A stretch of DNA of 64,000 nucleotides from Minisyncoccota bacterium (GCA_016782605.1 JADHYE010000001.1:11128-75127); one strand, 5' to 3'. Counted from the stretch's first letter, positions 3,588 through 63,901 are shown. The notes: generated by a model from the sequence alone, not told the origin. Numbers and translations are program-made.

Positions 3588-3850
3588 AGTGGTAATACTT
3601 AATTAATCGCGGCACGCGTCGCTTACGCTCCGCTAACACCGCTCTTTAGAAGACGAACGCAGTGAGGCGGGAAAAGAGATTTATCTCTTTGACCACTCTC
3701 GGTGCTCAATGAAGCTAAAGCTTCATTCCCCTTTCCGACATGGAATGGTTCTACTGAAACAAAAATGTCTGCTTTCCGCAGACAAAAATCAAGAAAAACT
3801 TAAAACTTTTCCTCGGCGGGTCTTATGGACGCCCACTGTCTGCGGATAAT
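3588..3850 (-). repeat. composite structured leader repeat F1, directly upstream of the rplJ ATG
   Basis: Shares the start-proximal block GCCGCGAyyTAATTArGTATTACCAyTATG and ..AAAGAGCGG.. with 33576-33870 and 57643-57794. Shares an 89-nt block (3639-3727) with 33651-33739. Confidence 0.6.
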
Positions 3851-3934
3851 ACTAATTTATTATATATCCAGAATCTTGTCAAGTGTTTCAAAAAGAGTAA
3901 GGGATCCGGTATTAAGGGCTCCCTTATGATAAAC

Positions 3935-3943
3935 ATTATACCA
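3935..3943 (-). promoter_or_regulatory. extended -10 promoter element (TGGTATAAT), candidate rplJ-rplL promoter
   Basis: Minus strand reads CCTGGTATAATG. The -35 is weak. It would give a leader of about 340 nt. Confidence 0.35.
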
Positions 3944-3992
3944 GGCATCTTTTAGTGACCTAATAATACGTATTTTAGAATTTTTGTCAAGG

Positions 3993-5021
3993 TTATTTGA
4001 AATACTTTACCTTAGCCGTATTGTGTTCGTCCAAGGTTTTGCTAAAAATAGTTTCTCCTTCCCTGGTGGAAAGATAATACCAGTAATCGCTATCTTGAAG
4101 ATAAACAGCAGCGATAATGCTTTCAAGTCCAGGATTACAAATCGGACCCAAGGGAAGCCCTTTGTATTTGTAAGTATTGTAGGGAGAATCAATTTCTGTA
4201 CCAGAAGCGATCTCTGATCTCATTTCGTCAAACGTCCAGTTTTCTTTTCCTAAGATATAAGCAATGGTGGCGCAGCTGCGCAAGGGTTCGCTATTCTCAA
4301 TCTTTCCCCAGAAAATGCCAGAAACTATTTTTTTGTCCTCCAAAGTTATTACTTCCTTCTCAAGAATACTAGCCATGGTCACTATTTCAAAAATAGTTTT
4401 GCCTTGTTTCTTAATTTCCTCTCTTAATTCAGAATTCAATTTCTTATCGAAATTAATAAGCATTTTTTCAACAACGCTTTCCATGCTTTCTTTGCTGGTT
4501 TTCTCGTAAGTATCGGGAAAAAGATATCCTTCCAGACTTAAATTCTCAGGCTTATCTCTAAGAAAAGCAAAATCAGCAGAAAAATCTTTTGAAGAAGAAC
4601 CGGTTATCGGAGAACCGACCAATCCAAAAAAATCATCAGCCCCAAATAAACCTTTGCTTTCAAAATAAGAAGCGATATCCCTTAAACTCCATCCTTCAAT
4701 AATAGTGATCTTTTCCTTTATGACATTGCCGGAAAAAAGCTTGTCAGCAATCTGAGGCATATTCATTGAAGGAGACAAAATATATTCTCCTGCTTTTAAA
4801 TAAGAAGCCATTCCCACAGTCAAAACATAAACCCGGAAAACAGGAGACCACCTTATCAATCCCTGATTTTCCAAATTCAAGCCGATGTCCCTTGAACCCT
4901 GACCCTTTTCCACGCTGAAAATAACTTCTTTTTCAGAATTCTGTTCTACGGGCAAAATAACCAGCCAGGAAGCAATCAGAACAATAATAACGACAATAAT
5001 TAAAATTAAAGATTTTTTCAC
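3993..5021 (-). CDS. mltG: endolytic murein transglycosylase, YceG/MltG family
   Basis: N-terminal TM helix followed by a YceG-like domain. The ORF-track start (5033, TTG) lies inside repeat A1. GTG at 5021-5019 gives MKKSLILII.... Confidence 0.8.
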   Translation of the reverse strand: MKKSLILIIVVIIVLIASWLVILPVEQNSEKEVIFSVEKGQGSRDIGLNLENQGLIRWSPVFRVYVLTVGMASYLKAGEYILSPSMNMPQIADKLFSGNVIKEKITIIEGWSLRDIASYFESKGLFGADDFFGLVGSPITGSSSKDFSADFAFLRDKPENLSLEGYLFPDTYEKTSKESMESVVEKMLINFDKKLNSELREEIKKQGKTIFEIVTMASILEKEVITLEDKKIVSGIFWGKIENSEPLRSCATIAYILGKENWTFDEMRSEIASGTEIDSPYNTYKYKGLPLGPICNPGLESIIAAVYLQDSDYWYYLSTREGETIFSKTLDEHNTAKVKYFK

Positions 5022-5152
5022 CCCGTATATCAACCTCCAAGCATTTTCAATGCGAAAATATCCTGAAGGCTGTCTTTATTTAATAATATATTCAACATAA
5101 TAACTTTGTTTGAGATTTTAATACGAAGTATTCTGGAAGTTGTATTACGGGG
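5021..5152 (-). mobile_element. family A hairpin (MITE-like) element, copy A1
   Basis: 132 bp. Arms are ccccgtatatcaacctccaag / ctggaagttgtattacgggg. Flanking direct repeat ttca at 5017-5020 and 5153-5156 (TGAA in gene sense). Lies between the pcm stop and the mltG start. Confidence 0.7.
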
Positions 5153-5153
5153 T

Positions 5154-5789
5154 TCATTTTTTCAATAAAGGAACGAAAATAAACCCTGGATGTTCTTTTT
5201 CTTCAAAATCAGTTTCGTTCTTTTTAATTAAAAGCCAGATTGAAGAATCAACCGGAGCAACAATCCTGCCTCCGATTTTCAGCTGCTTTTTCCAAGAATC
5301 GGGAATATTAACAGCACTAGCAGATGCTAAAATCTTGTCAAACCCTTCGACAAACTCAGGGTGAGAGGAGATATTGGGATAACCGTTGTTTCCGTCAAGA
5401 CAGAAAAACTGAACAATCCCCTTTTTAACGAAATTATATTTTGAAACGTTTTTCTCGCCAAAGTCCTTCAATTCCTGGATTATATCAAGGGAAATAACCT
5501 TTCCTTTTTTACCGACAATTTCAGCTAACAAAGCGCTGGTCCAGCCAGAGCCTGAACCAACATCCAAAACCTTATCCCCTTCATGCAAATCCAGCAATTC
5601 CATCATAAAAGCAACAACCAAAGGCTGAGAAATGGTCTGGCCGAATCCTATAGGCAAAGCCTCGTTGATCTCTGCTAAATTCTTTGAGTCTTCCGGCAAA
5701 AAATCGCTTCTCTTTATTTTTTTAAAAGCTTCTATCACTTTCGGCGTTTTCAGCCAGTTATCTTTAATTAGCTCTTCAATAAGCGGCAT
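5154..5789 (-). CDS. pcm: protein-L-isoaspartate O-methyltransferase
   Basis: 211 aa with a SAM-binding motif (VLDVGSGSGW) and a GQTISQP motif typical of Pcm. Confidence 0.85.
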   Translation of the reverse strand: MPLIEELIKDNWLKTPKVIEAFKKIKRSDFLPEDSKNLAEINEALPIGFGQTISQPLVVAFMMELLDLHEGDKVLDVGSGSGWTSALLAEIVGKKGKVISLDIIQELKDFGEKNVSKYNFVKKGIVQFFCLDGNNGYPNISSHPEFVEGFDKILASASAVNIPDSWKKQLKIGGRIVAPVDSSIWLLIKKNETDFEEKEHPGFIFVPLLKK

Positions 5790-5790
5790 A

Positions 5791-5860
5791 CTAGGTAGTA
5801 GAAATTCGACAAATTTATTTTTCTTTGCTGCCAGGCAGCAGTCGAATTTTCACTACCTGG
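5791..5860 (-). mobile_element. family B hairpin (MITE-like) element, copy B1
   Basis: 70 bp. Arms are ctaggtagtagaaattcgac / gtcgaattttcactacctgg. Flanked by cata at 5787-5790 and 5861-5864 (TATG in gene sense). 5789-5787 is the pcm ATG. Confidence 0.7.
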
Positions 5861-6312
5861 CATAGTTTTTGTGGTAAACTCATTTTATCAATAAATAGTA
5901 TTCCGTCCAAGTGGTCAATCTCGTGCTGGAAAACCCTGGCTGACAATCCATCAACTTTCATTTTGATTTTTTCCCCCTGCAGATTAAGAAACTCCAGTTC
6001 CACTTCCTTAGCTCTTTTAATCTTTAAAAACAAACCAGGAAAACTCAAGCATCCCTCTTCCATGACTTCTGTCTTTCTGCTTTTCCGCACGATCTTTGGA
6101 TTTATGAAAACTTGCGACTTTCCTTCAAAAAAAGCAGCGATTATGCTTTTTGATTCGCCGATCTGAGAAGCAGCCAATCCAATGCCGTCTTTTTCCATCA
6201 TTATCTTTTTCATTTCTTCGGCCAATATCTTCACCTCCTCGGTTATCTCCTTGATCGCAGAAGATTTCTTTCTCAGTATTGGATTTGGATATTCTAATAT
6301 TTGCTTACTCAT
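5815..6312 (-). CDS. def: peptide deformylase
   Basis: EGCLSFPG and QHEIDHLDG metal-site motifs. The last ~15 codons (CQVVKIRLLPGSKEK*) and the stop codon are encoded by element B1. Confidence 0.9.
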   Translation of the reverse strand: MSKQILEYPNPILRKKSSAIKEITEEVKILAEEMKKIMMEKDGIGLAASQIGESKSIIAAFFEGKSQVFINPKIVRKSRKTEVMEEGCLSFPGLFLKIKRAKEVELEFLNLQGEKIKMKVDGLSARVFQHEIDHLDGILFIDKMSLPQKLCQVVKIRLLPGSKEK

Positions 6313-10847: not shown

Positions 10848-10942
10848 ATTGCTTATTTGCTTGCCGAGCTGCAGCAAGATAGAAGAAGAGATTTATCTCT
10901 TCGCTTCTTTGTGAAAACTAACTAAAAAGCACTTATATGAAT

Positions 10943-12690: not shown

Positions 12691-13347
12691 TTATAATTTT
12701 CCAATTGATTTGCCGTATTTTCTCCTCCAGGCTTCTATCATTTTGTGATTACCCGAAACCAAAACTTTAGGTACCCGCCATTTCTGGAAAACTTCAGGCC
12801 TGGTGTATTGCGGATATTCCATAAATCCCTTTTCCTTAGTTATCCTTTCTTTCAATAAAGCAGGTTTGCCCAAAACTCCAGGTATTAACCTTGTTATGGT
12901 TTCCATAACTATCATTCCAGGCAACTCCCCTCCCATCAAGTCGTAGTCGCCAACTGACAACTCCATATCAGCAATGTGTTTGGCTACTCTTTCATCAACC
13001 CCTTCATACCGGCCGCAAATCATAATTATCTGGTTTAATTTTGACAACTGATAAGCTGTTTTCTGATTGAATTTCTTTCCCCGGGGAGTAAATAATATGA
13101 CTTTTGTTTTGCCTTTGCCTTTTATCTTTCTAACAGCTTTATATATGGACTCTACCTTCAAAACCATACCCAGCCCTCCGCCAAAAGGCCTATCATCAAC
13201 TGTTTTGCGCTGATCTTTGGCCCAGTCCCTCAAATTATGGACATTTATCTTAATCAATTTCTTTTCCCTGGCTTTCTTAATAAAAGACTCCTTCAGATAA
13301 GAATCGAATATTTGGGGAAAGATTGTAATAATATCAAATTTAAGCAT
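12691..13347 (-). CDS. trmD: tRNA (guanine37-N1)-methyltransferase
   Basis: 218 aa, TrmD-like throughout (MLKFDIITIFPQIF..., GGELPGM). Confidence 0.9.
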   Translation of the reverse strand: MLKFDIITIFPQIFDSYLKESFIKKAREKKLIKINVHNLRDWAKDQRKTVDDRPFGGGLGMVLKVESIYKAVRKIKGKGKTKVILFTPRGKKFNQKTAYQLSKLNQIIMICGRYEGVDERVAKHIADMELSVGDYDLMGGELPGMIVMETITRLIPGVLGKPALLKERITKEKGFMEYPQYTRPEVFQKWRVPKVLVSGNHKMIEAWRRKYGKSIGKL

Positions 13348-13348
13348 A

Positions 13349-13480
13349 CCCTGTATATCAACATCCAGGCATTTTCAATGCGAAAACACCCTGAAGATTG
13401 TCTTTATTTAATAATATATTTAACATAATAACTTTGTTTGAGATTTTAATACGAAGTATTCTGGATGTTGTATTACGGGG
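13349..13480 (-). mobile_element. family A element, copy A2
   Basis: 132 bp, flanked by cata at 13345-13348 and 13481-13484. 13347-13345 is the trmD ATG. Confidence 0.7.
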
Positions 13481-13544
13481 CATAAAAACAAAAACGGCCT
13501 ATTTTGAACAATAGCACCGTTTTTGCACTCTGTAAACTTAGAGT

Positions 13545-13981: not shown

Positions 13982-14440
13982 TCATTTTTCAACTTCTTTT
14001 TTCTCTTTAACCTTCTCTTCTTTTTTCTCTTCGGCAGGTTCAGTTTTAATTTCTTCAACAGCCGCTTCAGCCGGCGCTACAACTTCAGCTTGTTTAGGCG
14101 AAGCCTCAACAGGTTTCTCAACAGGTTTCTCTTCGTGCCTCTCCGGCACATCCGCCGGAGAGGCGGACTTTTTTGATTTTTTATGCAAAGCAATCTTTTT
14201 CCCTTCAATGATTTTCTGAGAAATCAGCATATTATGGATGGTTTCAGAAGGATGGGCGCCGACTGAAATCCAGTATTTTATCCTTTCTGCCTTTAATTTC
14301 TTCTCTTTTGTCAAAGGATTATAAAAACCGACTTCTTCAATATATCTTCCTGAAGTCGAAGATTTCTCTTTTTCGACCACCACTATCTTGAATGATGGCT
14401 GATTCTTTTTTCCTGTTCTTAATAATCTAATAACTAACAT
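13982..14440 (-). CDS. rpsP: 30S ribosomal protein S16 with a Lys/Glu/Pro-rich C-terminal extension
   Basis: N-terminus MLVIRLLRTGKKNQPSFKIVV... is canonical S16. About 70 extra low-complexity residues follow. Confidence 0.9.
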   Translation of the reverse strand: MLVIRLLRTGKKNQPSFKIVVVEKEKSSTSGRYIEEVGFYNPLTKEKKLKAERIKYWISVGAHPSETIHNMLISQKIIEGKKIALHKKSKKSASPADVPERHEEKPVEKPVEASPKQAEVVAPAEAAVEEIKTEPAEEKKEEKVKEKKEVEK

Positions 14441-14447
14441 ATATATA

Positions 14448-15137
14448 TTACCAATGTTTGACTGCTAAAGCGTTTTTCGCTGCCTCAACTTCTGCTTCTT
14501 GTTTTGAAGATCCTTTGCCTTCGGCCACTAAATCCTTATCAAGGAAAACGCCGATAACGAAATTCTTTGCGTGATCCGGCCCGTGTTCTTTCAAAACTTT
14601 ATAGGTCGGAGTAATGCCCACTCTTTCTTGGGCTGCTTCCTGGAAAGTGGATTTAGCATCCCTGAAAAGACCTTTCTCAATGATTTCCGGCAATTTAACG
14701 ATTAAATTCTTTTTAATGAATTTTTCGCATGCTTTATAGCCTGAATCAAGGTAAGCTGAACCGATAAACGCTTCAAAAGTGTTGGCCAGGATATAATCCC
14801 TTGATTTGCCTGTTTCTTTCATTTCTCCTTTTGAAAGAAGCAAAAAATCATTAAAGCCCAATTCCTTAGCAACCTCAGCAAGCATTTTAGCATTAACCAG
14901 AGAAGCGCGCCAGTTGGTCAATTCGCCTTCCGGCTTTTTGGGATATTTGACAAAAAGGTGTTCGGTAATAATAAGTTCCAAAACCGCATCTCCCAAAAAT
15001 TCCAGTCTTTCATTGTTATCCAGATTGGCTTTCGGATTCTCGTTCAGATAGGAGCGATGGCAAAAAGCCTGAATCAATAAATCCTTGTTTTTGAATTTAA
15101 AATTTAATTGCTTTTCCAATATTGAAAAATCATTCAT
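14448..15137 (-). CDS. rnc: ribonuclease III
   Basis: Signature NERLEFLGDAVLE and a C-terminal dsRBD (..GSSKQEAEVEAAKNAL). Confidence 0.9.
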   Translation of the reverse strand: MNDFSILEKQLNFKFKNKDLLIQAFCHRSYLNENPKANLDNNERLEFLGDAVLELIITEHLFVKYPKKPEGELTNWRASLVNAKMLAEVAKELGFNDFLLLSKGEMKETGKSRDYILANTFEAFIGSAYLDSGYKACEKFIKKNLIVKLPEIIEKGLFRDAKSTFQEAAQERVGITPTYKVLKEHGPDHAKNFVIGVFLDKDLVAEGKGSSKQEAEVEAAKNALAVKHW

Positions 15138-15267
15138 ATACCGAGTCCGCCCAAGGCGGGCGAAGGTGAAGAAGAGGTTTACCTCTTCGACTTACTTTTC
15201 TAATACCGAGTCCGCCCAAGGCGGGCGAAGGTGAAGAAGAGGTTTACCTCTTCGACTTACTTTTCTA
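15138..15267 (-). repeat. perfect 65-bp tandem duplication (2 units) of a two-hairpin intergenic module that includes the nusB stop codon
   Basis: 15138-15202 and 15203-15267 are identical by eye. Each unit contains GTCCGCC-caa-GGCGGGC and GAAGAGG-ttta-CCTCTTC hairpins plus ..cttacttttcta (the last nusB codons). Confidence 0.8.
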
Positions 15268-33575: not shown

Positions 33576-33870
33576 AGTGGTAATACCTAATTAAGTCGCG
33601 GCTCGCGCATATTATATATTAATATATTGCCTTCGGCGAATGTGCTACTGCCGCTCTTTAGAAGACGAACGCAGTGAGGCGGGAAAAAAGATTTATCTCT
33701 TTGACCACTCTCGGTGCTCAATGAAGCTAAAGCTTCATTTCGGTCTGCGCTTCCGTGAACGGAAGCTTGCCTTCTAACGTTTTCCACCTCATCGGCGGAA
33801 ATCCTGTTTTCCTATACGGAAGAACCTGATGGTTCTTCCGACCCATCTCCGATATGGGATACTATTACGT
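33576..33870 (-). repeat. composite structured leader repeat F2, directly upstream of the rplK ATG
   Basis: Shares the start-proximal block with F1 and F3, block 33651-33739 with F1, and block 33807-33868 with F3 (57726-57787). Confidence 0.6.
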
Positions 33871-47810: not shown

Positions 47811-47811
47811 A

Positions 47812-47943: not shown

Positions 47944-47951
47944 CATAAAAA

Positions 47952-52165: not shown

Positions 52166-52177
52166 TCAAGATTGAGG

Positions 52178-52183: not shown

Positions 52184-52192
52184 AATCATATG

Positions 52193-52264
52193 CCAGGTAG
52201 TGAAAATTCAACCACTGCCGCGGCAGTGAAAAAAATAATAATTTGTCGAATTTCTACTACCTAG
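52193..52264 (+). mobile_element. family B element, copy B3 (inverted relative to B1 and B2, matching its plus-strand gene)
   Basis: 72 bp, flanked by tatg at 52189-52192 and 52265-52268. 52266-52268 is the ATG of the 52266-53570 gene. Confidence 0.7.
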
Positions 52265-52265
52265 T

Positions 52266-53570
52266 ATGACCAAAAAGACAAAAACAATACTGTTTTTAGC
52301 CTGCTTACTTGCATTCATCCTGTTAGCTCCCTCAATAGTCCTGTACTCCCAAGGATACAGAATTGATTTTAATCCTCCAGAAGGCGGAAAAATGATTACC
52401 CAAACCGGAGGCCTTTTTTTGAAAGTCACGCCCAAACAAACAGATATTTATATTGACGGCAAACCTAAAAAAAGAACTGATTTTCTATTCGGTTCTGTTT
52501 TAATTGAAAACCTCATTCCTGGAAAGTACAAAGTAGAAATCAAAAAATTAACCAGCCAGGAAGAATACTATCCCTGGGAGAAAAACCTGGAAATACGGGA
52601 AAAACAGGTAACTGAAGCCAAGAACGTTGTCCTTTTCCCGAAAAACGTTAATTTCAACGTCTTATCAACCAACGTAGAACAGCTTTGGCTTTCTCTGGAC
52701 CAAAAGAAACTAATCTTAAAGGAAAATGAAAAAGCCAGCTGGTCCTTAAAGCTTTACGACCCGGAAAAGAATATAAAAAGCTATTTAATAAGCGACGAGG
52801 ATTTCTTCACGAAAGAACCCCAATTAATCAATCTGAAATTCTCGGGAGACTCAAGAAGTATTAATCTGGAAGTCAGCATAAAAGAAGCAATACAATCTTT
52901 TTCTCTGCAACTTGACCAAGCAAAACCAACTTTAAATAAAAAAACAGCAGCCACAACGACAACTGGAAACGCTGCTATCTCGCAACAAGCAGGCAATGAT
53001 ATATATTATCTGGACAGTTTCGGCTATCTTTTCAGGAATAAAGAAAAGCTGGCAGAAACTCCCTTTCAAACAAAACAAGAAACAGAATATGCTTTAGATA
53101 TTTTCAACGGCAACATATTCTTAAAAGAAAACGACAAACTGTACAAATTCAATTACAATCTGAAAACATTTGAACATTTCTTTGACGGAATCAATATCTT
53201 AAAGCTTTCTCCGGACAATAAAAAACTGCTTTACGCTTCAAACAATGAAATGTGGATTCTTTTCCTGGAAGACAAAATCGACCAGCCGCAGAAAAAATCA
53301 GGAGAGAAAATCTTTTTAATCCGCTTATCAGACCAAATCACAAGCATCTCCTGGATAAACGACAATTACCTGGCTTTTCTTGCCGGCAATACCGTTAAAA
53401 TCATTGAAATAGACGACAGGGACAGAATAAACGTTATAGACATCTTTGAAACAAAAAACCTCCCTCAAGAAGGAAGCATTAATGAAATGTCCTGGAACAG
53501 GTTTGACAATAAAATCTATCTCTTGGACGAAAACGGCTATTTATATAGCTCTAACGTCCTGCTCCCGTAA
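52266..53570 (+). CDS. hypothetical membrane-anchored protein with a PEGA-like domain and a C-terminal propeller-like region
   Basis: 434 aa. N-terminal TM helix, and TDIYIDGKPKKRT...PGKYKVEIKK resembling PEGA. Confidence 0.5.
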   Translation: MTKKTKTILFLACLLAFILLAPSIVLYSQGYRIDFNPPEGGKMITQTGGLFLKVTPKQTDIYIDGKPKKRTDFLFGSVLIENLIPGKYKVEIKKLTSQEEYYPWEKNLEIREKQVTEAKNVVLFPKNVNFNVLSTNVEQLWLSLDQKKLILKENEKASWSLKLYDPEKNIKSYLISDEDFFTKEPQLINLKFSGDSRSINLEVSIKEAIQSFSLQLDQAKPTLNKKTAATTTTGNAAISQQAGNDIYYLDSFGYLFRNKEKLAETPFQTKQETEYALDIFNGNIFLKENDKLYKFNYNLKTFEHFFDGINILKLSPDNKKLLYASNNEMWILFLEDKIDQPQKKSGEKIFLIRLSDQITSISWINDNYLAFLAGNTVKIIEIDDRDRINVIDIFETKNLPQEGSINEMSWNRFDNKIYLLDENGYLYSSNVLLP

Positions 53571-54269: not shown

Positions 54270-54739
54270 TGAGGAGCACGACGAGCGCGCTTCAATCCGA
54301 ACTTCTTTCTTTCCCTCATCCTCGGGTCTCTTTTCAAAAAACCAGCTTTTTTCAACTGTTTCCTCAATTCTGGATCGAATAAAACTAAAGCGCGAGTTAA
54401 ACCGTGCCTGACAGCTTCAGCCTGGGAAGTCGTCCCTCCCCCTTTAACTTTTACTGAAACCTGAAATTTGTCAGAATAATCAGTCAAAATCAAAGGAGAA
54501 AAAATAATACGCTGAAGGTATTTTGTCGGAAAATAATTTTCAAAAGTCCTTGTATTTATTAAAAAGGTCTTTTCTTTTTGAACAGAAATTCTCACCCTGG
54601 CTACAGCTGTCTTTCTCCTGCCTATGCCCTCAAAATACCTGGCTACTTTAGGTTTAACTGTTACTTTGGCAGTTTTTTTAGCTGGAGCTTTTTTGACTTT
54701 CTTTACTGTTTCTTTTTTTGTTTTTTTAGCCTTTGGCAT
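54254..54739 (-). CDS. rpsI: 30S ribosomal protein S9 with a Lys-rich N-terminal extension
   Basis: C-terminus ..RERKKFGLKRARRAPQWQKR is canonical S9. The ORF-track start (54760) runs into repeat A7. ATG at 54739 gives MPKAKKTKK... Confidence 0.9.
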   Translation of the reverse strand: MPKAKKTKKETVKKVKKAPAKKTAKVTVKPKVARYFEGIGRRKTAVARVRISVQKEKTFLINTRTFENYFPTKYLQRIIFSPLILTDYSDKFQVSVKVKGGGTTSQAEAVRHGLTRALVLFDPELRKQLKKAGFLKRDPRMRERKKFGLKRARRAPQWQKR

Positions 54740-54740
54740 A

Positions 54741-54872
54741 CCCCGTATATCAACATCCAAGCATTTTCAATGCGAAAACACTCTGAAGGCTGTTTTTATT
54801 TAATAATATATTCAACATAATAACTTTGTTTGATATTTTAATACGAAGTATTCTGGATGTTGTATTACAGGG
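54741..54872 (-). mobile_element. family A element, copy A7
   Basis: 132 bp, flanked by cata at 54737-54740 and 54873-54876. The rplM stop codon (54867-54865) lies inside the element. Confidence 0.7.
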
Positions 54873-55215
54873 CATATTTTAATCTTTTAATCATTTTTGC
54901 TCTTAATTTATTCTTGGGCAGCATGCCAAAAACCGCTTTCCTCAAAACTTCTTCCGGATTCTTCTCAAATAACTTCTCCAAAGTTATCTCCTTCAAGCTT
55001 CCCAGATATCCAGAATGACGGTAGTATTTCTTCTGTTTGGCTTTTTTGCCGGTGAATTTCAACTTATCAACGTTTTGGACAATAACAACATCGCCGATAT
55101 CTTTGTACGGCGCAAAGTCTGCTTTCTGTTTCCCCCTCAAAAGCAAAGCTATTTCAACAGCCAGTCTGCCTAAAACCTTATCAGTAGCGTCTATTTTGTG
55201 GGTTTTGCGTTCCAT
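54865..55215 (-). CDS. rplM: 50S ribosomal protein L13
   Basis: 116 aa, L13-like (..VLGRLAVEIALLLRGK..). The last residues (..YAL*) are encoded by TATG plus element A7. Confidence 0.9.
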   Translation of the reverse strand: MERKTHKIDATDKVLGRLAVEIALLLRGKQKADFAPYKDIGDVVIVQNVDKLKFTGKKAKQKKYYRHSGYLGSLKEITLEKLFEKNPEEVLRKAVFGMLPKNKLRAKMIKRLKYAL

Positions 55216-56364: not shown

Positions 56365-56422
56365 ATAGCGAGTCCCGCAACAACGGGACGAAGGTTAAGA
56401 AGAGGATGAATTCCTCTTCGAT
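56365..56422 (-). repeat. two-hairpin intergenic module related to the nusB-rnc unit
   Basis: atagcgaGTCCCGcaacaaCGGGACgaaggttaaGAAGAGGatgaattCCTCTTCgattta fills the whole rpsD-rpoA spacer. Same architecture as 15138-15202 with different stem sequences. Confidence 0.6.
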
Positions 56423-57052
56423 TTATTTTGAGTAAAACTCGAAAATTGCGGAGAGTTCTGCCGGTGGGACAGCCTCTTCTAAATTTGGTGAATCGATGAC
56501 CTTTGCCTCCAGCTTCTCAGCGTCTAATTTGAGCCAAGACGGAGGATTATATTTTTTTAAAGTAGATGATAATTTCTGGAAAATTGTTTTTTTTAAAGAA
56601 TTGGGGTTAACGCTTATTTTGTCCCCTTTCTTAACCAGATAGCTGGAAATATTAATCGGCCTGTCGTTAACCATAAGATGGCTGTGGGAAACCATTTGTC
56701 TGGCAGCAAATTTGGAAGGAGCGAAACCTAATCTGAAAACTACATTGTCCAAGCGGCTCTCCAAAGTTTTAATTAAAGCAGCGCCGGCATCCGTCACCTT
56801 TCCCCTGGCCTTTAAAATATCTTTGACGTAGTTCCTGAATTGCTTCTCTTCCAAATTATACCAGTTCTTTAATTTTTGTTTTTCCCTTAATTCTTTACCG
56901 TATTCAGAAAGCGATTTCACTCTTTTTTTAGCTTTTGGCCCTGGCGGATAAGGTTTTTTGATCATTGGGCATTTCTGCGATGAGCACCTTTCGCCTCTCA
57001 AAAAAAGCTTAATTCCTGCACGACGGCAAATTTTGCATTTAGAAACATTCAT
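56423..57052 (-). CDS. rpsD: 30S ribosomal protein S4
   Basis: 209 aa with an N-terminal zinc-ribbon-like CKICRR..C segment and an S4 domain. Confidence 0.95.
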   Translation of the reverse strand: MNVSKCKICRRAGIKLFLRGERCSSQKCPMIKKPYPPGPKAKKRVKSLSEYGKELREKQKLKNWYNLEEKQFRNYVKDILKARGKVTDAGAALIKTLESRLDNVVFRLGFAPSKFAARQMVSHSHLMVNDRPINISSYLVKKGDKISVNPNSLKKTIFQKLSSTLKKYNPPSWLKLDAEKLEAKVIDSPNLEEAVPPAELSAIFEFYSK

Positions 57053-57053
57053 A

Positions 57054-57185
57054 CCCTGTATATCAACATCCAGGCATTTTCAATGCGAAAATATCCTGAA
57101 GGCTGTCTTTATTTAATAATATATTTAACATAATAACTTTGTTTGATATTTTAATACGAAGTATTCTGGATGTTGTATTACAAGG
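57054..57185 (-). mobile_element. family A element, copy A8
   Basis: 132 bp, flanked by cata at 57050-57053 and 57186-57189. 57052-57050 is the rpsD ATG. Confidence 0.7.
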
Positions 57186-57192
57186 CATAAGT

Positions 57193-57642
57193 TTATACCC
57201 TTCTTACTTTTGGCTTACGACAGCCGTTATGCGGAACTGGAGTCATATCCTTAATTGAAACTATTTCCAAACCCCTGGCAGCCAATGACCTAATAGCTGA
57301 ATCTCTGCCAGAACCTATCCCCTTTACGAAAATCTCTATCTTTTCAATCCCTATTTTCTCGGCAATCTGGACGATTGCTTCAGCTACCTTGGAAGCAGCA
57401 AAAGGCGTTGCTTTTTTTGCTCCTTTGAAACCGATATTGCCAGCGCTAGTCCAGCCCAAAACATTACCCTTTGGATCTGTCAAAGTAAGGATGGTGTTGT
57501 TATAAGAAGAAGCAATGTAAATTCTGCCCTCTTGTATCCTTTTAAGGGTTTCTTTGGCCTGCTCTTTCACTTTCGTTTCCATGGCTTCACCTTCTTTCAA
57601 AATCTCTTCTTCAGTTTGTCGTATAACACGTTTTTTACCCAT
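57193..57642 (-). CDS. rpsK: 30S ribosomal protein S11
   Basis: C-terminus ..DMTPVPHNGCRKPKVRRV is canonical S11. Confidence 0.95.
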   Translation of the reverse strand: MGKKRVIRQTEEEILKEGEAMETKVKEQAKETLKRIQEGRIYIASSYNNTILTLTDPKGNVLGWTSAGNIGFKGAKKATPFAASKVAEAIVQIAEKIGIEKIEIFVKGIGSGRDSAIRSLAARGLEIVSIKDMTPVPHNGCRKPKVRRV

Positions 57643-57794
57643 AATGGTAATACCTAATTAGGTCGCGGCACGTCCCACTTGCAGCGGGACTAACACCGCT
57701 CTTTAAAAACCCTCGGTTTTTAATATTTTCCTACACGGAAGAACCAAAGGGTTCTTCCGACCCATCTCCGATATGGGACGTTATTACTGAATTA
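57643..57794 (-). repeat. composite structured leader repeat F3, filling the rpsM-rpsK spacer
   Basis: 152 nt. Contains hairpins CCCAT..ATGGG, GGAAGAACC..GGTTCTTCC, AAAAACC..GGTTTTT and GTCCCGC..GTGGGAC, and ends ..GCCGCGACCTAATTAGGTATTACCATTATG. Confidence 0.6.
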
Positions 57795-58184
57795 TTATGT
57801 AGGTCCCGGAGGCGGCTTTCTGCCAGAACCAACTGTCTTTCTTATATTTCCCCTGGCAGTTCTCGTATTGGTTTTGGTTCTCTGCCCCCGCACAGGCAGG
57901 CCTTTAATGTGCCTGATGCCTATCCAGGTTCCTGCGTCCTTCAACCTTTTAATATTCATCATAATTTCTCTTTTCAAATCGCCCTCTGTCTTATAATTCT
58001 TCTCAATAATGTCTTTTAAGGTAGACACTTCCTGAGTGGTCAATTCTGAAGCTTTTTTTGTTTCTCCAATACCAGCTTCCTCTAAAATTTTCTTGCTCAA
58101 AGAGCGGCCTATTCCGAAAATATAGGTTAGGGCTATTTGTATTTGTTTTTTTTCAGGGATGTTAATCCCGGCAATACGTGGCAT
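57795..58184 (-). CDS. rpsM: 30S ribosomal protein S13
   Basis: MPRIAGINIPEKK.. is canonical S13. Confidence 0.95.
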   Translation of the reverse strand: MPRIAGINIPEKKQIQIALTYIFGIGRSLSKKILEEAGIGETKKASELTTQEVSTLKDIIEKNYKTEGDLKREIMMNIKRLKDAGTWIGIRHIKGLPVRGQRTKTNTRTARGNIRKTVGSGRKPPPGPT

Positions 58185-58189
58185 AAGTT

Positions 58190-58306
58190 TTATCCTTGAC
58201 GCTGCTTATGTTTGGGATTTTTTTTGCAAATAACATAAATTCGTCCTGATCTTCGGACGATTTTACAGTCTTTGCAAATTTTCTTGACCGATGGACGTAC
58301 TTTCAT
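58190..58306 (-). CDS. rpmJ: 50S ribosomal protein L36
   Basis: Hand translation gives [38 protein letters not shown] (38 aa). Below the ORF-track cutoff. Confidence 0.85.
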
Positions 58307-58603: not shown

Positions 58604-59905
58604 CTAATCAATGACCAGATTGAATTTAATCTTACTTAGGTCTTCTGGCACCTTATTGACCCAGAATGGCCAAAACTTGACGCTGGCCCTGGTAATCTTA
58701 GGATAGTTTTCCAAGAAGAGCTTAGCCTCGAGCAAAGACTTTCCTTTTAAGGCGTTTTTAAAGCTGAAAATGTCAACGTCAGCATAGATTTTAGCTGAAA
58801 TTGTCAAAGAAACAGCAATTTTGCCGGTCTCTAAATCAACATCGTCAATAGAATAATTTATTTTCAAACTTTCCTCATAAAGCTTTTTATCCTGGGGAAT
58901 TTGAAAAGTAATCGCTTCTTTAACGTAATTCCTAATATCTTCTTTCTTAAACACTACGACTTGGCATTGCGCTTTCACCTGATAATTAAAGTCTTTTGCT
59001 TCTGTTTCAGCAGAAGTCAAAGAAAAGTTCTCAATAATTTCTGTCTGGATGCTGTCTGGCAAATAATCGAACTTGGAAGAAATCGCTTCTGACTGCAGTT
59101 CTTTCTGCAGCAGTTCATTGCATTCTTTCTCCGCTTGTTTTGTTAAAGTTTCTTCAGCTTGAGATAAATCCTTTTCTGTCACTTTAGCAATTTCTTCATG
59201 GAAGCCGCCTGCCATTGCTTCAAAAGATTCGCCGTAGAATTTAGTATACCTGTCTGTGCCGGCAAATCCCGGTACGGAGAACTTGGTCAAAGCGATATTG
59301 TATTCTTCGCCAGGCTGATCTGCCACCACTTTTACATCTATTTCTCCTGGAACAAGCTTTCCTTTCTCATAAGTACCTCCAGGAACAGTAACTTTGATTG
59401 GCGTGCGGAATACCTTTCCGTCAGCTGAAACAAAACGGGTAGTGGCTATTAAAACCTGCTGCGAAGTTGAATAGGCATTGTACACTTTTATTGTGCCTTG
59501 CGCCTTCTCCTCTTTCATAATTTTACCGGAAGCCGGAAAAGTCTGAACAATGGTTTTTTCTTTCTGAAGCGTTTCTGCCGGAATAATCTTTAAAAGAGAA
59601 TCAATAGCTGTTGCGTTTTTGTCGATATTCGTTTCTTCTATAAGATTAAAAACTTCTGTCTCCGGCCAAACGCTTATTTCAGCTTTAGACAAAGCAATGT
59701 AGCAAAACGCTCCCAATAAAACCAAAAAAAGCAAAGAAAAAGTCAAACCCTTTTTAAAGGGTGGATTAGGAGCTTTTTTAGGAAAACCCCACAAAGGAAC
59801 CTTGGGCTTTTGCTCTAGTTCTATCTTTACTTCTGGCTCTTTGTGCTCCTCCTTTTTTTTCTCTTTTTTCGAAGGAGGGAAAACGTCTATTACTTTTTTG
59901 CTCAT
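58604..59905 (-). CDS. hypothetical membrane-anchored protein
   Basis: 433-aa ORF with a Lys-rich N-terminus and one TM helix. No family recognised. Confidence 0.45.
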   Translation of the reverse strand: MSKKVIDVFPPSKKEKKKEEHKEPEVKIELEQKPKVPLWGFPKKAPNPPFKKGLTFSLLFLVLLGAFCYIALSKAEISVWPETEVFNLIEETNIDKNATAIDSLLKIIPAETLQKEKTIVQTFPASGKIMKEEKAQGTIKVYNAYSTSQQVLIATTRFVSADGKVFRTPIKVTVPGGTYEKGKLVPGEIDVKVVADQPGEEYNIALTKFSVPGFAGTDRYTKFYGESFEAMAGGFHEEIAKVTEKDLSQAEETLTKQAEKECNELLQKELQSEAISSKFDYLPDSIQTEIIENFSLTSAETEAKDFNYQVKAQCQVVVFKKEDIRNYVKEAITFQIPQDKKLYEESLKINYSIDDVDLETGKIAVSLTISAKIYADVDIFSFKNALKGKSLLEAKLFLENYPKITRASVKFWPFWVNKVPEDLSKIKFNLVID

Positions 59906-59906
59906 A

Positions 59907-59979
59907 CCAGGTAGTAGAAATTCGACTAATTAAACATTATTATCACTGCCGCGGTAGTGGTCGAATTTTCACTACCTGG
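59907..59979 (-). mobile_element. family B element, copy B2
   Basis: 73 bp, flanked by cata at 59903-59906 and 59980-59983. 59905-59903 is the ATG of the 58604-59905 gene. Confidence 0.7.
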
Positions 59980-59988
59980 CATAATAAT

Positions 59989-59994
59989 ATTATA
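59989..59994 (-). promoter_or_regulatory. -10 hexamer TATAAT placing a predicted TSS on the A of the upstream duplicated ATG (59982)
   Basis: Minus strand reads TATAAT-ATTATT-ATG. Same 6-nt spacing as at 52178-52192. Confidence 0.35.
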
Positions 59995-60006
59995 CACTAT
60001 TTATGC

Positions 60007-61665: not shown

Positions 61666-62177
61666 TAGCTGTATCTGTCAGCTACTGATGAAGCAGCGAA
61701 AGATTCCGGCTTGATTTTCGGCTCAAAACCGTTCCCTTTTATCAAACCGGTAACCTCTTTAATCATGTCCCTAGTTTTTCCGTTCTCACCGACATCGGCA
61801 TGAATGTAGCGAAACTGATAGTTAAGATTTGCTTTTCCGGGCTTTTGAATCACCTTTTCAAAGCTTTCTCTCAGATATAAAGCAAATTGGCAGGAAAGAT
61901 AAACTTCTTCTAAAATTCTCTGTTTCCAGTTATAGAAAATCCTTCCTTTATAATCTATCTTTTTAAGAAAAAATCTGCCCCCCTCGCCCACTCTCAAAAC
62001 AACTACTGCCAAAGGAAAATGCGGCTCTGTACCGGAGGAGGAATCGCAACCAACGATAACATCGTAAAACTTTTCAGGTTTTTCGGAAATATAATTAATT
62101 ATCTCCTCAAGCACCTTCTCAATCTTAAGATCGCCCTTGGTCGGATTAAAAAAATAGCCGTTTAGAATCTTATCCAT
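61665..62177 (-). CDS. RNase H-fold protein of the YkuK/DUF458 type (putative)
   Basis: 170 aa with ..VGCDSS.. and ..HADVGENG.. segments. Stop overlaps the alaS ATG (TAATG). Confidence 0.5.
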   Translation of the reverse strand: MDKILNGYFFNPTKGDLKIEKVLEEIINYISEKPEKFYDVIVGCDSSSGTEPHFPLAVVVLRVGEGGRFFLKKIDYKGRIFYNWKQRILEEVYLSCQFALYLRESFEKVIQKPGKANLNYQFRYIHADVGENGKTRDMIKEVTGLIKGNGFEPKIKPESFAASSVADRYS

Positions 62178-62215
62178 AATTTAATGGTTAAAAATAACAA
62201 AAATACCCAATAAGG

Positions 62216-62947
62216 TCAACTTTTCCTCACGCTCTCAATAAAGTCTTTGGCGTTCAGAGAGGCTGCGCCGATTAAAGCGCCGTTTATACCATCAACAGCA
62301 ACAAACTCTTGAATGTTCCTGCTGTTTACGCTCCCGCCGTACAATATCCTCAATTTCTGAGCAATATTTTTACCAAATAATTTAAACAAATTCTCCCGAA
62401 TAAAAGCTGCTCCTTGTTCAGCTTGTTTTGGAGTAGCTACTTTTCCTCCTTTTGTCGTACTTATCGCCCAAACAGGCTCGTAAACAACAACTAAATTCTT
62501 AACCTCATTTTTATTAATTCCAGATAAAGCTATTTCTAGCTGTTTCTTGATTTCTTTGAATTCCTGCTTCTGATTCTTGCTCTTGCTACCAATACAAAGA
62601 ATTGGCTTCAAACCAGCTTTTAAAACCGCCTTTAATTTCCTATTAACTATTTCATCTGTCTCTTTCAGAACTTCTCTTCTCTTAGAATGGCCAAGAATGA
62701 CATATTTTACACCAATGCTTTTCAACATTAAAGGAGAAATTTCCCCGGTAAAAGGCCCTCCGCAACAAAAACAATCCTGGGCTCCCAGTTCCAAACCGGG
62801 ACTGAGAGAAGCAATATATAAAAAAGGAGGGCAGATAACCACCTCTGCTTTTTTAATGTTTTTTACCCCTTTAGCAACAGAATTAAAAAGCTTTTTAGCT
62901 TCTGTCAAACTTTTAGGGTTGCATTTCCAGTTTGCGACAATCAACAT
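62216..62947 (-). CDS. tpiA: triosephosphate isomerase
   Basis: ..IVANWKCN.., ..ILGHSKRR.. and ..VVYEPVWAIST.. motifs. Confidence 0.9.
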   Translation of the reverse strand: MLIVANWKCNPKSLTEAKKLFNSVAKGVKNIKKAEVVICPPFLYIASLSPGLELGAQDCFCCGGPFTGEISPLMLKSIGVKYVILGHSKRREVLKETDEIVNRKLKAVLKAGLKPILCIGSKSKNQKQEFKEIKKQLEIALSGINKNEVKNLVVVYEPVWAISTTKGGKVATPKQAEQGAAFIRENLFKLFGKNIAQKLRILYGGSVNSRNIQEFVAVDGINGALIGAASLNAKDFIESVRKS

Positions 62948-62973
62948 AATCGTTGTTTTATTATAGAACTTTT

Positions 62974-63720
62974 TTAAGCTTCTGTTAATATTTTGCAGCC
63001 CTTTTCCGCTACAACAATAGTATGTTCAAAATGGCAGGATAAAGAATTATCAGCAGTTTTATAAGCGTGCCCGTCAGAAGCCAATTTGATTTTCCAGTCG
63101 CCTACGGCCAGCATCGGCTCAATGCAGAAAACCATTCCTTCTTTTATTTCAGGACCGCTCCTTCTTTTTCCGTAATTCAATATTTGCGGCTCTTCGTGAA
63201 CTTCTCTGCCAATTCCATGACCGCATAAGTCCTGTATAACGCTGAATCCCTGCGACTCAGCAAATCTCTGGATAGTATTGCCAATATCGCCAAAAGTATT
63301 GCCCGGCCTGACTTTTTTCAACCCTCTCTTTAAAGCTTTCTTCGTTGTGCGGATAAGCCTAGAAACTTCAGAGCTAACCTTGCCGACGGGCAAAGTCACT
63401 GCCATATCAGTATGAAAACCCTTATAAAGCATTCCTAAATCAAGGGAAATTATCTCTCCCTCTTTCAAGACACGATCTGAAGGAATAGCATGGACTATTT
63501 CCTCGTTTATCGAAGTACACAAACAATTAGGATAACCATCGTGTCCCTTAAAAGAACATTTTCCTCCGGATTTTAAAATCAGACTCTCGCTGAGCCTGTC
63601 TAATTCTTTAGTGGTAATTCCTGGCTTCACTTTCTTCTCCAACTCCTGCATAATCTTTGCCAGAATTTTACCGCCTGCTGCCATTATCTTAATTTCCTCT
63701 TTTGTTTTTATCGGAATCAT
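62974..63720 (-). CDS. map: type I methionine aminopeptidase
   Basis: 248 aa with the usual metal-ligand context (..ISLDLG.., ..GHGIG.., ..FCIEP.., ..HFEHT..). Confidence 0.95.
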   Translation of the reverse strand: MIPIKTKEEIKIMAAGGKILAKIMQELEKKVKPGITTKELDRLSESLILKSGGKCSFKGHDGYPNCLCTSINEEIVHAIPSDRVLKEGEIISLDLGMLYKGFHTDMAVTLPVGKVSSEVSRLIRTTKKALKRGLKKVRPGNTFGDIGNTIQRFAESQGFSVIQDLCGHGIGREVHEEPQILNYGKRRSGPEIKEGMVFCIEPMLAVGDWKIKLASDGHAYKTADNSLSCHFEHTIVVAEKGCKILTEA

Positions 63721-63831
63721 TTACCAAGTTTTTATTTATAAGTTCGATGAGATGAATCTCATTTCTCGCTCAATTTATATTTATCTCTCAAACGCGAAAT
63801 GAAATAAATATTTCATTGAGCAAACGCAGGT

Positions 63832-63901
63832 GGAAAAGAAGCTTTAGCTTCTTTGACCAAGCCGAGCTTCCGAAAGAGTCAAAGAGATAAATCTCTTTTC
63901 C
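63832..63901. repeat. 70-bp double-hairpin module (family G), inverted relative to its copies inside F1 and F2
   Basis: GGAAAAGAAGCTTTAGCTTCTTTGAC...GTCAAAGAGATAAATCTCTTTTCC. Homologous blocks lie at ~3669-3730 and ~33681-33739 on the opposite strand. Confidence 0.5.

Follow-up and report, generated by a model that had tools for sequence, protein, structure and literature searches.

Upstream of rplJ (site F1), of rplK (site F2) and of map, the window (the whole 64,000-nt stretch of DNA analysed here) carries a double hairpin that had been noticed as a 70-bp module lying in both orientations. This arrangement immediately raises a question: is the module a mobile or recombining piece of DNA, or a signal read in the sense-strand RNA of the genes that it precedes?

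The double hairpin is indeed present in both orientations, as the original prediction had it. Positions 3670-3693 of the plus strand and 63878-63901 of the minus strand share the exact 24-mer GGAAAAGAGATTTATCTCTTTGAC (blastn-short E 3e-8), and the hairpin GAAGCTAAAGCTTC lies on the plus strand at 3711 and 33723 and on the minus strand at 63838, giving three matches in the window versus 0.05 expected. When F1 (3669-3730) was aligned globally with the reverse complement of the map-leader module (63832-63901), 54 of 61 aligned columns were identical, with one 9-nt gap. The score was 77, compared with 34 for the forward orientation and with a mean of 5.5 and a maximum of 20 in 500 shuffles; the similarity thus holds in a proper alignment, which had been set beforehand as the refuting test. 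F2 matches the reverse complement of the map-leader module at 51 of 58 positions (global alignment), and F1 and F2 have in common a 96-nt stretch of 96% identity (repeat family D3) with the module inside it. F1, F2 and the map leader are each a convergent, tail-to-tail pair of two oriented hairpin units; what appears as opposite orientation is thus an exchange of the two hairpin identities with respect to the gene downstream. The parts of the three sites are as follows.

3588..3765, minus strand: F1 composite block, between the terminator hairpin of the L10 leader and the rplJ start codon; absent in the close relative L037.
3661..3693, plus strand: F1 unit A, GTGAGGCGGGA, hairpin AAAGAGA-ttta-TCTCTTT (3673-3690), tag GAC; flank score 18.0.
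3705..3730, minus (tagged) strand: F1 unit B, hairpin AATGAAGC-ttta-GCTTCATT (3708-3727), convergent with unit A.
33673..33705, plus strand: F2 unit A, hairpin AAAAAGA-ttta-TCTCTTT (33685-33702), one stem mismatch.
33717..33766, minus strand: F2 unit B, including the companion hairpin of the next line, linker GCGCAGACCGA, hairpin AATGAAGC-ttta-GCTTCATT (33720-33739), then GAG; flank score 14.8.
33749-33766, minus strand: companion hairpin of F2 unit B, GCTTCCG-ttca-CGGAAGC.
63746..63763, minus (tagged) strand: family hairpin GATGAGA/TCTCAT(T), first in the chain upstream of map; L032 has a homologue at 1143-1160.
63798..63817, plus strand: companion hairpin (hpX) of the left map-leader unit, AATGAAAT-aaat-ATTTCATT; homologous block in L032 at 1120-1253.
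63824..63857, plus strand: left unit of the map-leader pair, linker ACGCAGGTGGA, hairpin AAAGAAGC-ttta-GCTTCTTT (63835-63854), tag GAC; flank score 23.8.
63858..63877, no strand: spacer between the two map-leader tails, 20 nt; the F1 and F2 spacers are 9 nt shorter.
63878..63908, minus strand: right unit of the map-leader pair, CAAAGATGGA, hairpin AAAGAGA-ttta-TCTCTTT (63881-63898), tag GAC; flank score 20.1.
63908..63926, minus strand: companion hairpin of the right map-leader unit, GTTTTCGC-ata-GCGAAAAC; L020 is arranged alike.
63933..63967, plus strand: further chain unit of the map leader, AACGAAGATGAA, hairpin GAAGAGGA-tttg-TCCTCTTC, then GCT; terminator-like on the minus strand.

Neither module hairpin is flagged as an intrinsic terminator, for which a U-tract has to come immediately after a G+C-rich stem, and only 63964-63945 on the minus strand passes a loose scan.

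Each half of the module follows the pattern 5'-CGAAGRTGGA-[6-9 bp hairpin, 5' arm RAWGAR]-GAC-3'. A position-weight matrix reads ARCGAAGRTGGA-[hairpin]-GACTA; it was built from 78 oriented, high-scoring copies, a number that covers 34 scanned loci and the window. These copies show an oriented unit made up, in order, of an optional 3-5 bp helix (P1), GA, a variable companion hairpin, GAA, the linker G-R-T-G-G-A, a main hairpin and the tag GAC(TA). The repertoire of main hairpins is small (AAAGAGA, GAAGAGA, GATGAAC and similar arms, with TTTA or GAA loops); they are 17-21 nt long with stems of 6-9 bp, or ~35 nt with their flanks. A companion hairpin accompanies 49 of the 78 copies, with 35 distinct stems, and in 41 of these 49 its end lies at exactly 9 nt upstream. 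Full pairing of P1 is seen in 34 copies, versus 1.3 expected. A kink-turn, in which tandem G.A pairs follow a three-nucleotide bulge between a canonical and a non-canonical stem, was considered and rejected: tandem GA..GA flanks are present, but the 5' strand has no 3-nt bulge and the 3' strand has one extra base.

Almost all stem pairs (572/581, 98.5%) are Watson-Crick. The G.T wobble pairs number five on one strand and four on the other, with no strand bias, and the two strands fold equally well. The stems covary while the flanks stay fixed, and neither linker nor tag is palindromic. The pairing of the stems and the symmetry of the wobbles are evidence for a signature at the DNA level.

Comparison between genomes shows that units of 36-54 nt come and go as discrete blocks, in either orientation, with no target duplication exceeding 3 nt. 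The rplJ gene of L037 is 85% nucleotide-identical to that of the window, and its leader is without the whole 178-nt F1 block; family hairpins number 18 in the 64 kb of the window and none in the 22 kb of syntenic L037 sequence. L016 has units in its infA-rpmJ and tpiA/RNaseH-like spacers, both of which are empty in the window. Blocks of the F type recur in other genomes between recG/leuS, rpsG/fusA, pheS/pheT, PolX/NUDIX and other gene pairs, with the orientation relative to the genes reversed in L013, and the map-leader block recurs at ~90% identity between the mreB and holB orthologues of L032.

These data bear directly on the reading of the module as a sense-strand cis-regulatory leader RNA of ribosomal-protein genes, namely an autoregulatory L10/L11 leader. 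The positions of F1 and F2 upstream of rplJ and rplK invite it, as does a nearby match to the Rfam L10_leader (RF00557; 3751-3863, 40.9 bits, below the gathering score of 44). However, the module at 3669-3730 lies outside this match, downstream of its terminator hairpin; the block is missing from the L037 leader, stands elsewhere between non-ribosomal genes and in reversed orientation, and the pair is inverted upstream of map. This reading is already contradicted, and we regard it as highly improbable.

The units are shown to occupy short gene spacers, often flush with stop and start codons, the loops of other repeats, and coding sequence in frame. In the window, the following features belong to such spacers and repeats.

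10885..10902, plus strand: family hairpin GAAGAGA-ttta-TCTCTTC, 8 nt upstream of the start of a DUF5674 gene.
15133..15262, plus strand: two tandem 65-nt units located after the stop of nusB and before the start of RNase III (repeat family D8), each laid out as ACC-GA-[GTCCGCC..GCGGGC]-GAA-GGT-GAA-[GAAGAGG ttta CCTCTTC]-GAC.
56366..56422, plus strand: single unit that occupies the entire rpsD-rpoA spacer, flush with stop and start codons.
57703..57723, no strand: 'empty' backbone hairpin TTAAAAACC-ctc-GGTTTTTAA in the S13-S11 spacer; it carries a nested unit in other genomes.

The nesting inside other repeats that had been proposed is borne out by the last of these, since the backbone hairpin, empty here, has a unit in its loop in L005, L006, L017 and L022. 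The units join into dimers, tandem arrays and alternating chains, and the long 'leaders' of this genome are therefore mosaics of units; this too had been predicted, and it agrees with the shared blocks, the filled and empty spacers and the missing F1 block of L037.

Two copies in the window lie within coding sequence.

264..317, minus strand: intragenic 54-nt unit, in frame, VKEVSVLFSRFASIGNSA; flank score 21.1; missing from most orthologues.
333..386, plus strand: intragenic 54-nt unit, in frame, RRAFIRKSEGKEEIYLFA; 53/54 identical to the L038 copy at the same codon.

Alignment A1 has the inserts in only some orthologues, and intragenic sites with and without an insert were set side by side in nucleotide sequence. 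In three strains with 92% of alignment columns identical, one gene differs by five clean, scarless, in-frame indels of 48, 54, 54, 36 and 48 nt. No conserved target tetranucleotide was found at the five sites. One insert is 53/54 identical between genomes while its flanks are only 65-66% identical.

We propose that two copies of a miniature palindromic repeat, joined tail to tail as a heterodimer, make up the 70-bp module, and that this repeat spreads as DNA with the single unit as the mobile unit; we consider this probable. The choice of a DNA-level mobile or recombining module over a sense-strand RNA signal, made in the original prediction, is supported by presence and absence, non-orthologous contexts, polymorphic in-frame insertions and stem symmetry. 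The prediction attributed mobility to the 70-bp pair; the basic mobile unit is the single unit of 36-54 nt, and not the pair alone.

How widely is the repeat distributed? An exact 21-mer core was found at 34 loci in ~20 Patescibacteria MAGs, with family-like flanks in 33 of the loci, and was not found in viral contigs; in the window, 14 copies score, versus 0-6 in shuffles. The family populates the genomes of many Patescibacteria, which are ultrasmall and uncultured. The element is absent from Rfam, and we found no published description of it. Genomes with only 50-60% identity between orthologous proteins have this sequence in conserved form; such conservation, unusual for REPs, might instead be due to a host factor or function that is itself conserved.

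An exact 21-24-mer common to many genomes, in a group where pili and competence genes are prevalent, and its occurrence in both orientations and as inverted pairs might also be expected of a DNA-uptake-type signal, or of another double-stranded DNA site bound by a protein, whose enrichment would come from biased uptake or recombination and not from transposition. The variation, however, consists of indels of whole 36-54-nt units and not of a short motif gained by point mutation, and covarying stems within fixed flanks, together with a linker and tag that are not palindromic, also speak against such a site, which we judge very unlikely.

With respect to genes, 45 copies lie between co-directional, nine between convergent and six between divergent genes, and 12 of 32 start no more than ~10 nt from the stop codon of the preceding gene. 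These counts depend on crude ORF calls, which served to place genes in the loci retrieved by pattern scan. In co-directional spacers, 32 copies have the GA-tagged strand antisense to the genes and 13 have it sense (p = 0.007). The orientation independence that had been proposed is accordingly correct in that both orientations occur, but the choice is not fully free. This bias suggests either that selection acts on the RNA or that one replication strand is preferred, two causes that these counts do not separate.

The first of these causes is central to a reading in which the hairpins are primarily host RNA 'punctuation' of operons (3'-end stabilisers, RNase processing sites or weak terminators), spread by selection and recognised by a conserved Patescibacteria protein. 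The orientation bias, the copies that start just past a stop codon and abut the next start codon with their far end, the conservation across distant genomes, the resemblance of the tandem G-A flanks and covarying P1 helix to an RNA motif, and the passing of a loose terminator scan by sense-strand type-II copies are all in its favor. Nevertheless, it is the strand antisense to the flanking genes that mostly carries the G-A motif, and neither strand has an excess of G.U pairs; copies stand in frame in coding regions, in divergent spacers and within essential operons, where termination would be harmful; L037 does without any copy in 22 kb of syntenic sequence; and the U-tract is missing at the two hairpins of the module itself. 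Punctuation as the primary role is hence unlikely in our view. It could coexist with mobility.

Copies are also grouped. Dimers in opposite orientation are found at F1, F2, the map leader, L013, L028 and L020, and tandem arrays with periods of 61-93 nt in L023, L027 and the window (15133-15262). Such periods, together with one variable and one constant hairpin per unit, recall the guide-RNA arrays of a TIGR-Tas-like or CRISPR-like system, and CPR bacteria are reported to carry TIGR stem-loop arrays (PMC12045711). But no Nop-domain (Tas) or Cas gene is present in the window, most copies are scattered singly or as dimers between housekeeping genes, some are inside coding regions, and the units are almost fully base-paired without unpaired spacer segments. 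A guide-RNA origin is scarcely credible.

Returning to the mobile repeat, which enzyme might move it? None of the ~67 genes in the window, all of them housekeeping by Pfam, encodes a transposase, RAYT included. A tblastn search of 0.37 Mb with the TnpA proteins of IS200 and IS608 returned nothing credible, a weak test that covered a small part of each genome.

REPs are palindromic stem-loop units of 20-40 bp with an unpaired GTAG or CGTC tag at one end; their many dispersed copies are mostly extragenic, frequently form dimers in opposite orientation, and lie between co-directional or convergent genes near the 3' end of the upstream gene, and the RAYT (Y1 transposase) gene is REP-flanked (PMC3733652). 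The present family resembles REP/BIME in its short palindromic units, one end of which carries an unpaired tag, its many dispersed spacer copies, its opposite-orientation dimers (often heterodimers with 10-100 nt spacers) and alternating chains, and its preference for co-directional or convergent spacers near the upstream stop codon, with occasional intragenic copies. It differs in its GAC(TA) tag with a 10-nt linker, CGAAGRTGGA, the reverse complement (T)AGTC matching neither GTAG nor CGTC; in the second, hypervariable hairpin that the unit usually has at a fixed distance of 9 nt; in that no RAYT gene was found among the window genes or by tblastn over 0.37 Mb; in near-identical copies common to genomes with 50-60% protein identity; and in its hosts, tiny Patescibacteria genomes, for which we found no REP report.

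The closest parallel to the pair itself is the REPIN, reportedly a REP doublet that forms a hairpin, replicates as the inverted pair rather than as the single REP and is mobilised by RAYT. Likewise, the 70-bp module consists of two inverted units and a spacer, can be folded into one long hairpin on either strand, and is found in both orientations; unlike REPINs, single 36-54-nt units insert alone, the partners differ in sequence and no RAYT was found in the window or by tblastn over 0.37 Mb. The Rickettsia RPE, with other intragenic REPs, offers the parallel for the intragenic copies, being a palindromic repeat inserted in frame in protein-coding genes and present or absent among orthologues. 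The units here, which add 12-18 residues, are shorter (36-54 nt), belong to an unrelated host group and presumably to an unrelated sequence family, and vary even between strains that agree at 92% of aligned positions. Overall, the elements behave like REP/BIME and Rickettsia RPE, minus the GTAG/CGTC tag. BOX elements of Streptococcus pneumoniae are modular intergenic repeats of short structured modules in variable number that can repeat in tandem; the modular build would be alike, with module sequences that presumably differ. In IS200/IS605 elements, DNA that bears hairpins is likewise inserted and excised without target-site duplication. The mechanism here would be parallel to theirs, whereas no transposase gene was found in the window and no target tetranucleotide is conserved at five sites.

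Peel-and-paste transposition is a known route for the scarless insertion and excision of hairpin-ended DNA. By analogy, copies of the repeat would move as DNA, most plausibly as single-stranded hairpins, and a candidate handler would be an enzyme that recognises hairpins in the manner of REP/RAYT or of IS200/IS605 'peel-and-paste' systems. We only tentatively suggest a bolder version: a previously unrecognised, Patescibacteria-wide class of scarless hairpin transposons with one variable and one constant GA-tagged hairpin, handled by an enzyme other than a classical RAYT, spread horizontally and possibly co-opted at the RNA level. If true, such elements would pass horizontally among lineages of ultrasmall bacteria and reshape both operon spacers and protein sequences, and hosts may have co-opted them as RNA punctuation. 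Most copies are probably co-transcribed with the flanking genes, so stable mRNA hairpins should also form, and these may serve secondarily as 3'-end stabilisers or as insulators between cistrons.

The three sites at which the original prediction had placed a 70-bp double-hairpin module, one in the leader of map (63832-63901) and two inside the composite repeat blocks upstream of rplJ and rplK (F1, ~3669-3730, and F2, ~33681-33739, respectively), do carry homologous blocks. The 24-mer GGAAAAGAGATTTATCTCTTTGAC occurs at 3670-3693 (+) and, without a mismatch, at 63878-63901 (-) (E 3e-8), and the second hairpin, GAAGCTAAAGCTTC, is found at 3711 (+), 33723 (+) and 63838 (-), three matches with 0.05 expected. 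In a global alignment of F1 with the reverse complement of 63832-63901, 54 of 61 aligned columns are identical, with one 9-nt gap; the score of 77 compares with 34 for the forward orientation and with a mean of 5.5 and a maximum of 20 in 500 shuffles, and the similarity therefore holds in a proper alignment. F1 and F2 have 96 nt in common, at 96% identity. The downstream genes are all on the minus strand, and the pair is inverted relative to them, as had been predicted.

Genes downstream of the three sites
3075-3587, minus strand, rplJ
33153-33575, minus strand, rplK
62974-63720, minus strand, map

At each of the three sites two oriented hairpin units converge; the tagged (GA) strand gives a unit its orientation.

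Hairpin units in the window
F1 / F2, left unit, tagged strand plus: GGA[AAAGAGA ttta TCTCTTT]GAC
F1 / F2, right unit, tagged strand minus: CGA, AATGAAGC ttta GCTTCATT, GAG
Map leader, left unit, tagged strand plus: GGA, AAAGAAGC ttta GCTTCTTT, GAC
Map leader, right unit, tagged strand minus: GGA[AAAGAGA ttta TCTCTTT]GAC
63746-63964, five-unit hairpin chain of mixed orientation, upstream of map
15133-15262, two tandem units
56366-56422, one unit making up the whole rpsD-rpoA spacer

From a matrix of 78 oriented copies, the consensus is 5'-ARCGAAGRTGGA-[hairpin]-GACTA-3'. The main hairpin has a stem of 6-9 bp, with R-A-W-G-A-R as its 5' arm, and a loop that is TTTA in 52 of the 78 copies, GAA in 9 and GAAT in 3. 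A variable companion hairpin, with 35 distinct stem sequences, lies upstream in 49 of the 78, and in 41 of these 49 exactly 9 nt separate its 3' end from the main hairpin. All pairs of the flanking 3-bp helix (ACC/GGT, ATC/GAT or CCC/GGG) form in 34 copies, where shuffles give 1.3. With all its parts a unit measures about 54 nt; the short form, which is devoid of the companion hairpin, measures 36-43 nt.

Several other identities were considered and rejected. The position of GAAGGTGGA relative to start codons is wrong for a Shine-Dalgarno role, and its R position is variable (GATGGA). A short ORF through the element was discarded because the conserved feature is stem complementarity, not codons. 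If TTGAC at the 3' end of the hairpin is taken as a -35 element, no consistent -10 follows at 16-18 nt in the examples inspected, and a promoter scan found nothing at the module. The tandem GA flanks, as read from the sequence, have no 3-nt bulge as in a kink-turn, and by a terminator scan the module is not a canonical terminator. Rfam gave no family on the module in gathering or permissive E-value scans, the module lies outside the L10 leader, and the window has neither a Tas gene nor spacers as in a TIGR array (PMC12045711).

Comparison with loci from other genomes (L005-L040) makes the mobility of the units visible. The infA-rpmJ and tpiA/RNaseH-like spacers are short and empty in the window, and in L016, a relative with 47-78% protein identity, each is occupied by a full unit that directly abuts the next start codon. 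In L037, a close relative (rplJ 85% identical in nucleotide sequence), about 15 nt separate the terminator hairpin of the L10 leader from the start codon of rplJ; at this place the window is longer by 178 nucleotides (3588-3765), which are the F1 block with the module, and F1 is an insertion. Family hairpins number 0 in 22 kb of L037 versus 18 in the 64-kb window. Blocks of the F type recur elsewhere between unrelated genes, at 83-91% identity.

F-type blocks in other genomes
L013, recG/leuS, opposite orientation relative to the genes
L028, rpsG/fusA
L005, pheS/pheT
L022, PBP/unknown
L006, PolX/NUDIX
L017, radical-SAM/unknown

The map-leader block (63725-63857) likewise matches L032 at 89.7% over 136 nt, where the copy lies between the orthologues of mreB and holB; in the window only 3 nt separate these two genes. 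At 57703-57723 the window has the hairpin TTAAAAACC-ctc-GGTTTTTAA in intact form; in L005, L006, L017 and L022 its loop carries a 43-nt unit, which bears out the proposed nesting within other repeats. The leaders are mosaics, as had also been claimed.

Units are found inside coding sequence as well. The reading frame of ORF 3-1616 passes through two of them, and most of its homologues, which align over the full query, are without both 18-residue inserts, some having one and some having others elsewhere. In a nucleotide comparison with L037, 264-317 and 333-386 are inserts of precisely 54 nt. The homologous gene in three strains, L038, L039 and L040, in which 92% of aligned positions are identical, differs by five clean indels of 48, 54, 54, 36 and 48 nt, in both orientations, with a flanking duplication that never exceeds 3 nt and no target-site consensus at these five sites. 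The insert 333-386 and the L038 copy at the same codon are identical at 53 of 54 positions, the flanking coding DNA being 65-66% identical. The peptides that the element is predicted to contribute to the decorated proteins include VKEVSVLFSRFASIGNSA, RRAFIRKSEGKEEIYLFA and SRATAKGKEERLLSSP. Separately, the translation of the ORF at 2776-3375 of L021 holds KKEGEEGKSSSSPFA, corresponding to a family hairpin (2887-2906), apparently a further in-frame copy, in another gene.

The units have come and gone recently, as discrete blocks and without scars, their sequence is conserved far more strongly than the host genes, and their distribution is patchy; a mobile element that spreads horizontally or is continually re-copied behaves in this way. 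The predicted mobility of the 70-bp module is thus supported, with the qualification that what moves is the single 36-54-nt unit.

The pairing pattern points to the DNA level. Stems are 98.5% Watson-Crick (572 of 581 pairs), and among the nine non-canonical pairs G.T falls 5 times on the tagged strand and 4 times on the other. Selection on an RNA from one strand should give a G.U excess there, and none is seen; the wobble pairs give no indication of a functional strand. Both strands fold about equally, whether as two hairpins or as a single long one (z-scores from about -2.6 to -4). This symmetry in wobble pairs, the unit indels and the blocks between unrelated genes all support the predicted DNA-level mobile module.

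Orientation independence stands only in part: the pair is inverted and units occur in both orientations, but relative to transcription the orientation is biased rather than free. In co-directional spacers, the tagged strand is antisense in 32 copies and sense in 13 (binomial p = 0.007), a count that, like the positions below, rests on our own crude ORF calls in the pattern-scan loci. Of the 32 copies in the commoner orientation, 12 have a hairpin that starts no more than ~10 nt from the upstream stop codon, and the distance from hairpin to next start codon clusters at 32-40 nt, equal to linker plus companion hairpin, so that many spacers are a single unit. Copies between convergent genes number 9 and between divergent genes 6. 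The bias could reflect mRNA-level selection or a replication-strand preference.

Copies inside operons (S13-S11, S4-rpoA, S7-EF-G, pheS-pheT and infA-rpmJ) must be transcribed and will form stable hairpins. Possible effects are stabilisation of upstream mRNA or insulation of cistrons, both of which have been suggested for REPs (PMC3733652).

The units appear block-wise, without scars and in either orientation, in spacers, repeat loops and coding sequence. From what is established for REP/RAYT and IS200/IS605 systems, we infer that they may move as single-stranded hairpin DNA by means of a hairpin-specific enzyme. The window contains no transposase, all its genes being housekeeping by Pfam, and tblastn of 0.37 Mb with approximate IS200/IS608 TnpA sequences gave one weak spurious match, in an FtsA-like gene of L021. 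The mobilising enzyme, if found, could prove to be a hairpin-specific DNA-processing activity of a new kind.

The genomes of Patescibacteria (CPR) are considered streamlined and repeat-poor. In a one-genome-per-species collection, the 21-mer AAAGAGATTTATCTCTTTGAC has exact matches in 34 loci, 33 of which have family-like flanks, from ~20 MAGs labelled Nealsonbacteria, Parcubacteria group, Curtissbacteria, Patescibacteria group, 'uncultured Saccharibacteria' or 'bacterium'; several genomes hold multiple copies, some in tandem arrays. The single Campylobacterota match (L011) is without family flanks, and viral contigs gave no match to the 21-mer. In L010, ~930 nt between convergent genes (1927-2860) hold at least seven family hairpins in both orientations and no long ORF, a BIME-like cluster. 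Full-text searches and one paper on Patescibacteria gene exchange yielded no account of such repeats in this group. The family resembles REP/BIME elements in its tagged palindrome, opposite-orientation heterodimers, chains, proximity to upstream stop codons and intragenic copies (PMC3733652), and Rickettsia RPEs in its in-frame insertions; however, the tag is neither GTAG nor CGTC, and classical REP membership fails.

The family is thus unexpectedly active and widespread in supposedly streamlined genomes and alters protein sequences directly, although it introduces no new principle. In one genome, much of the non-coding DNA consists of this short hairpin element, with mosaic 'leaders' as the result. 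The element also adds peptides of 12-18 residues that differ between near-identical strains, giving a source of rapid genome and protein variation and a strain-level marker for an uncultured group. Long structured regions before Patescibacteria ribosomal-protein genes should accordingly not be taken for regulatory leaders unless relatives are compared. The repeats also appear to break assemblies: two short-read contigs on which the map protein is identical (L035, L036) end 100-104 nt upstream of map, exactly at the start of the repeat chain, and thus offer no upstream flank for comparison.

Other repeats were seen in the window. A second family consists of a ~140-nt block (81-92% identity) found before seven unrelated minus-strand genes, where its end coincides exactly with the start codon. 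Its two ends are imperfect inverted repeats of ~20 nt, CCCCGTAATACAACATCCAG ... CTGGATGTTGATATACAGGG; a MITE-like element and a structured 5' leader common to these genes are both possible readings. A third comprises blocks of 60-90 nt, GTATAATAATCATATGCCAGGTAGTGAAAATTC...GTCGAATTTCTACTACCTAG, forming a long hairpin. The ~30 nt that immediately precede the rplJ, rplK and rpsK start codons resemble one another (GCCGCGAnnTAATTAgGTATTACCAyTATG), which suggests that the composite blocks provide these genes with their translation-initiation region; no Shine-Dalgarno-like GGAGG is visible before the three starts or in the L037 rplJ leader.

Other repeats in the window
5017-5187, 13345-13515, 41787-41957, 47110-47280, 47808-47978, 54737-54907 and 57050-57220, second family
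Near 36984-37022, second family, partial copy
52177-52276 and 59895-59995, third family, just upstream of a start codon, sense orientation
5787-5864, third family
3576-3617, 33564-33605 and 57631-57672, similar pre-start segments (rplJ, rplK, rpsK)

A further module, TTTTCCTAyACGGAAGAACC....GGTTCTTCCGACCCATCTCCGATATGGGA, lies in the nusG-rplK and S13-S11 spacers (33807-33868 and 57726-57787, 89% identical), and also in L005, L006, L017 and L022, where it adjoins the nested unit. L037 has two small ORFs (123 and 141 aa, no Pfam match) at 14022-15005, between the L10 leader and yceG; the window counterpart is non-coding DNA only. The usual nusG-rplK-rplA-rplJ-rplL cluster is split: rplK (33153-33575) is followed by dCMP deaminase and thymidylate synthase, rplJ-rplL (2586-3587) lies 30 kb from rplK, and the L1 gene is absent from the window. 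Upstream of rpsM, 58152-58238 (-) matches the Rfam alpha-operon ribosome-binding site below the threshold (27.3 bits, gathering 38).
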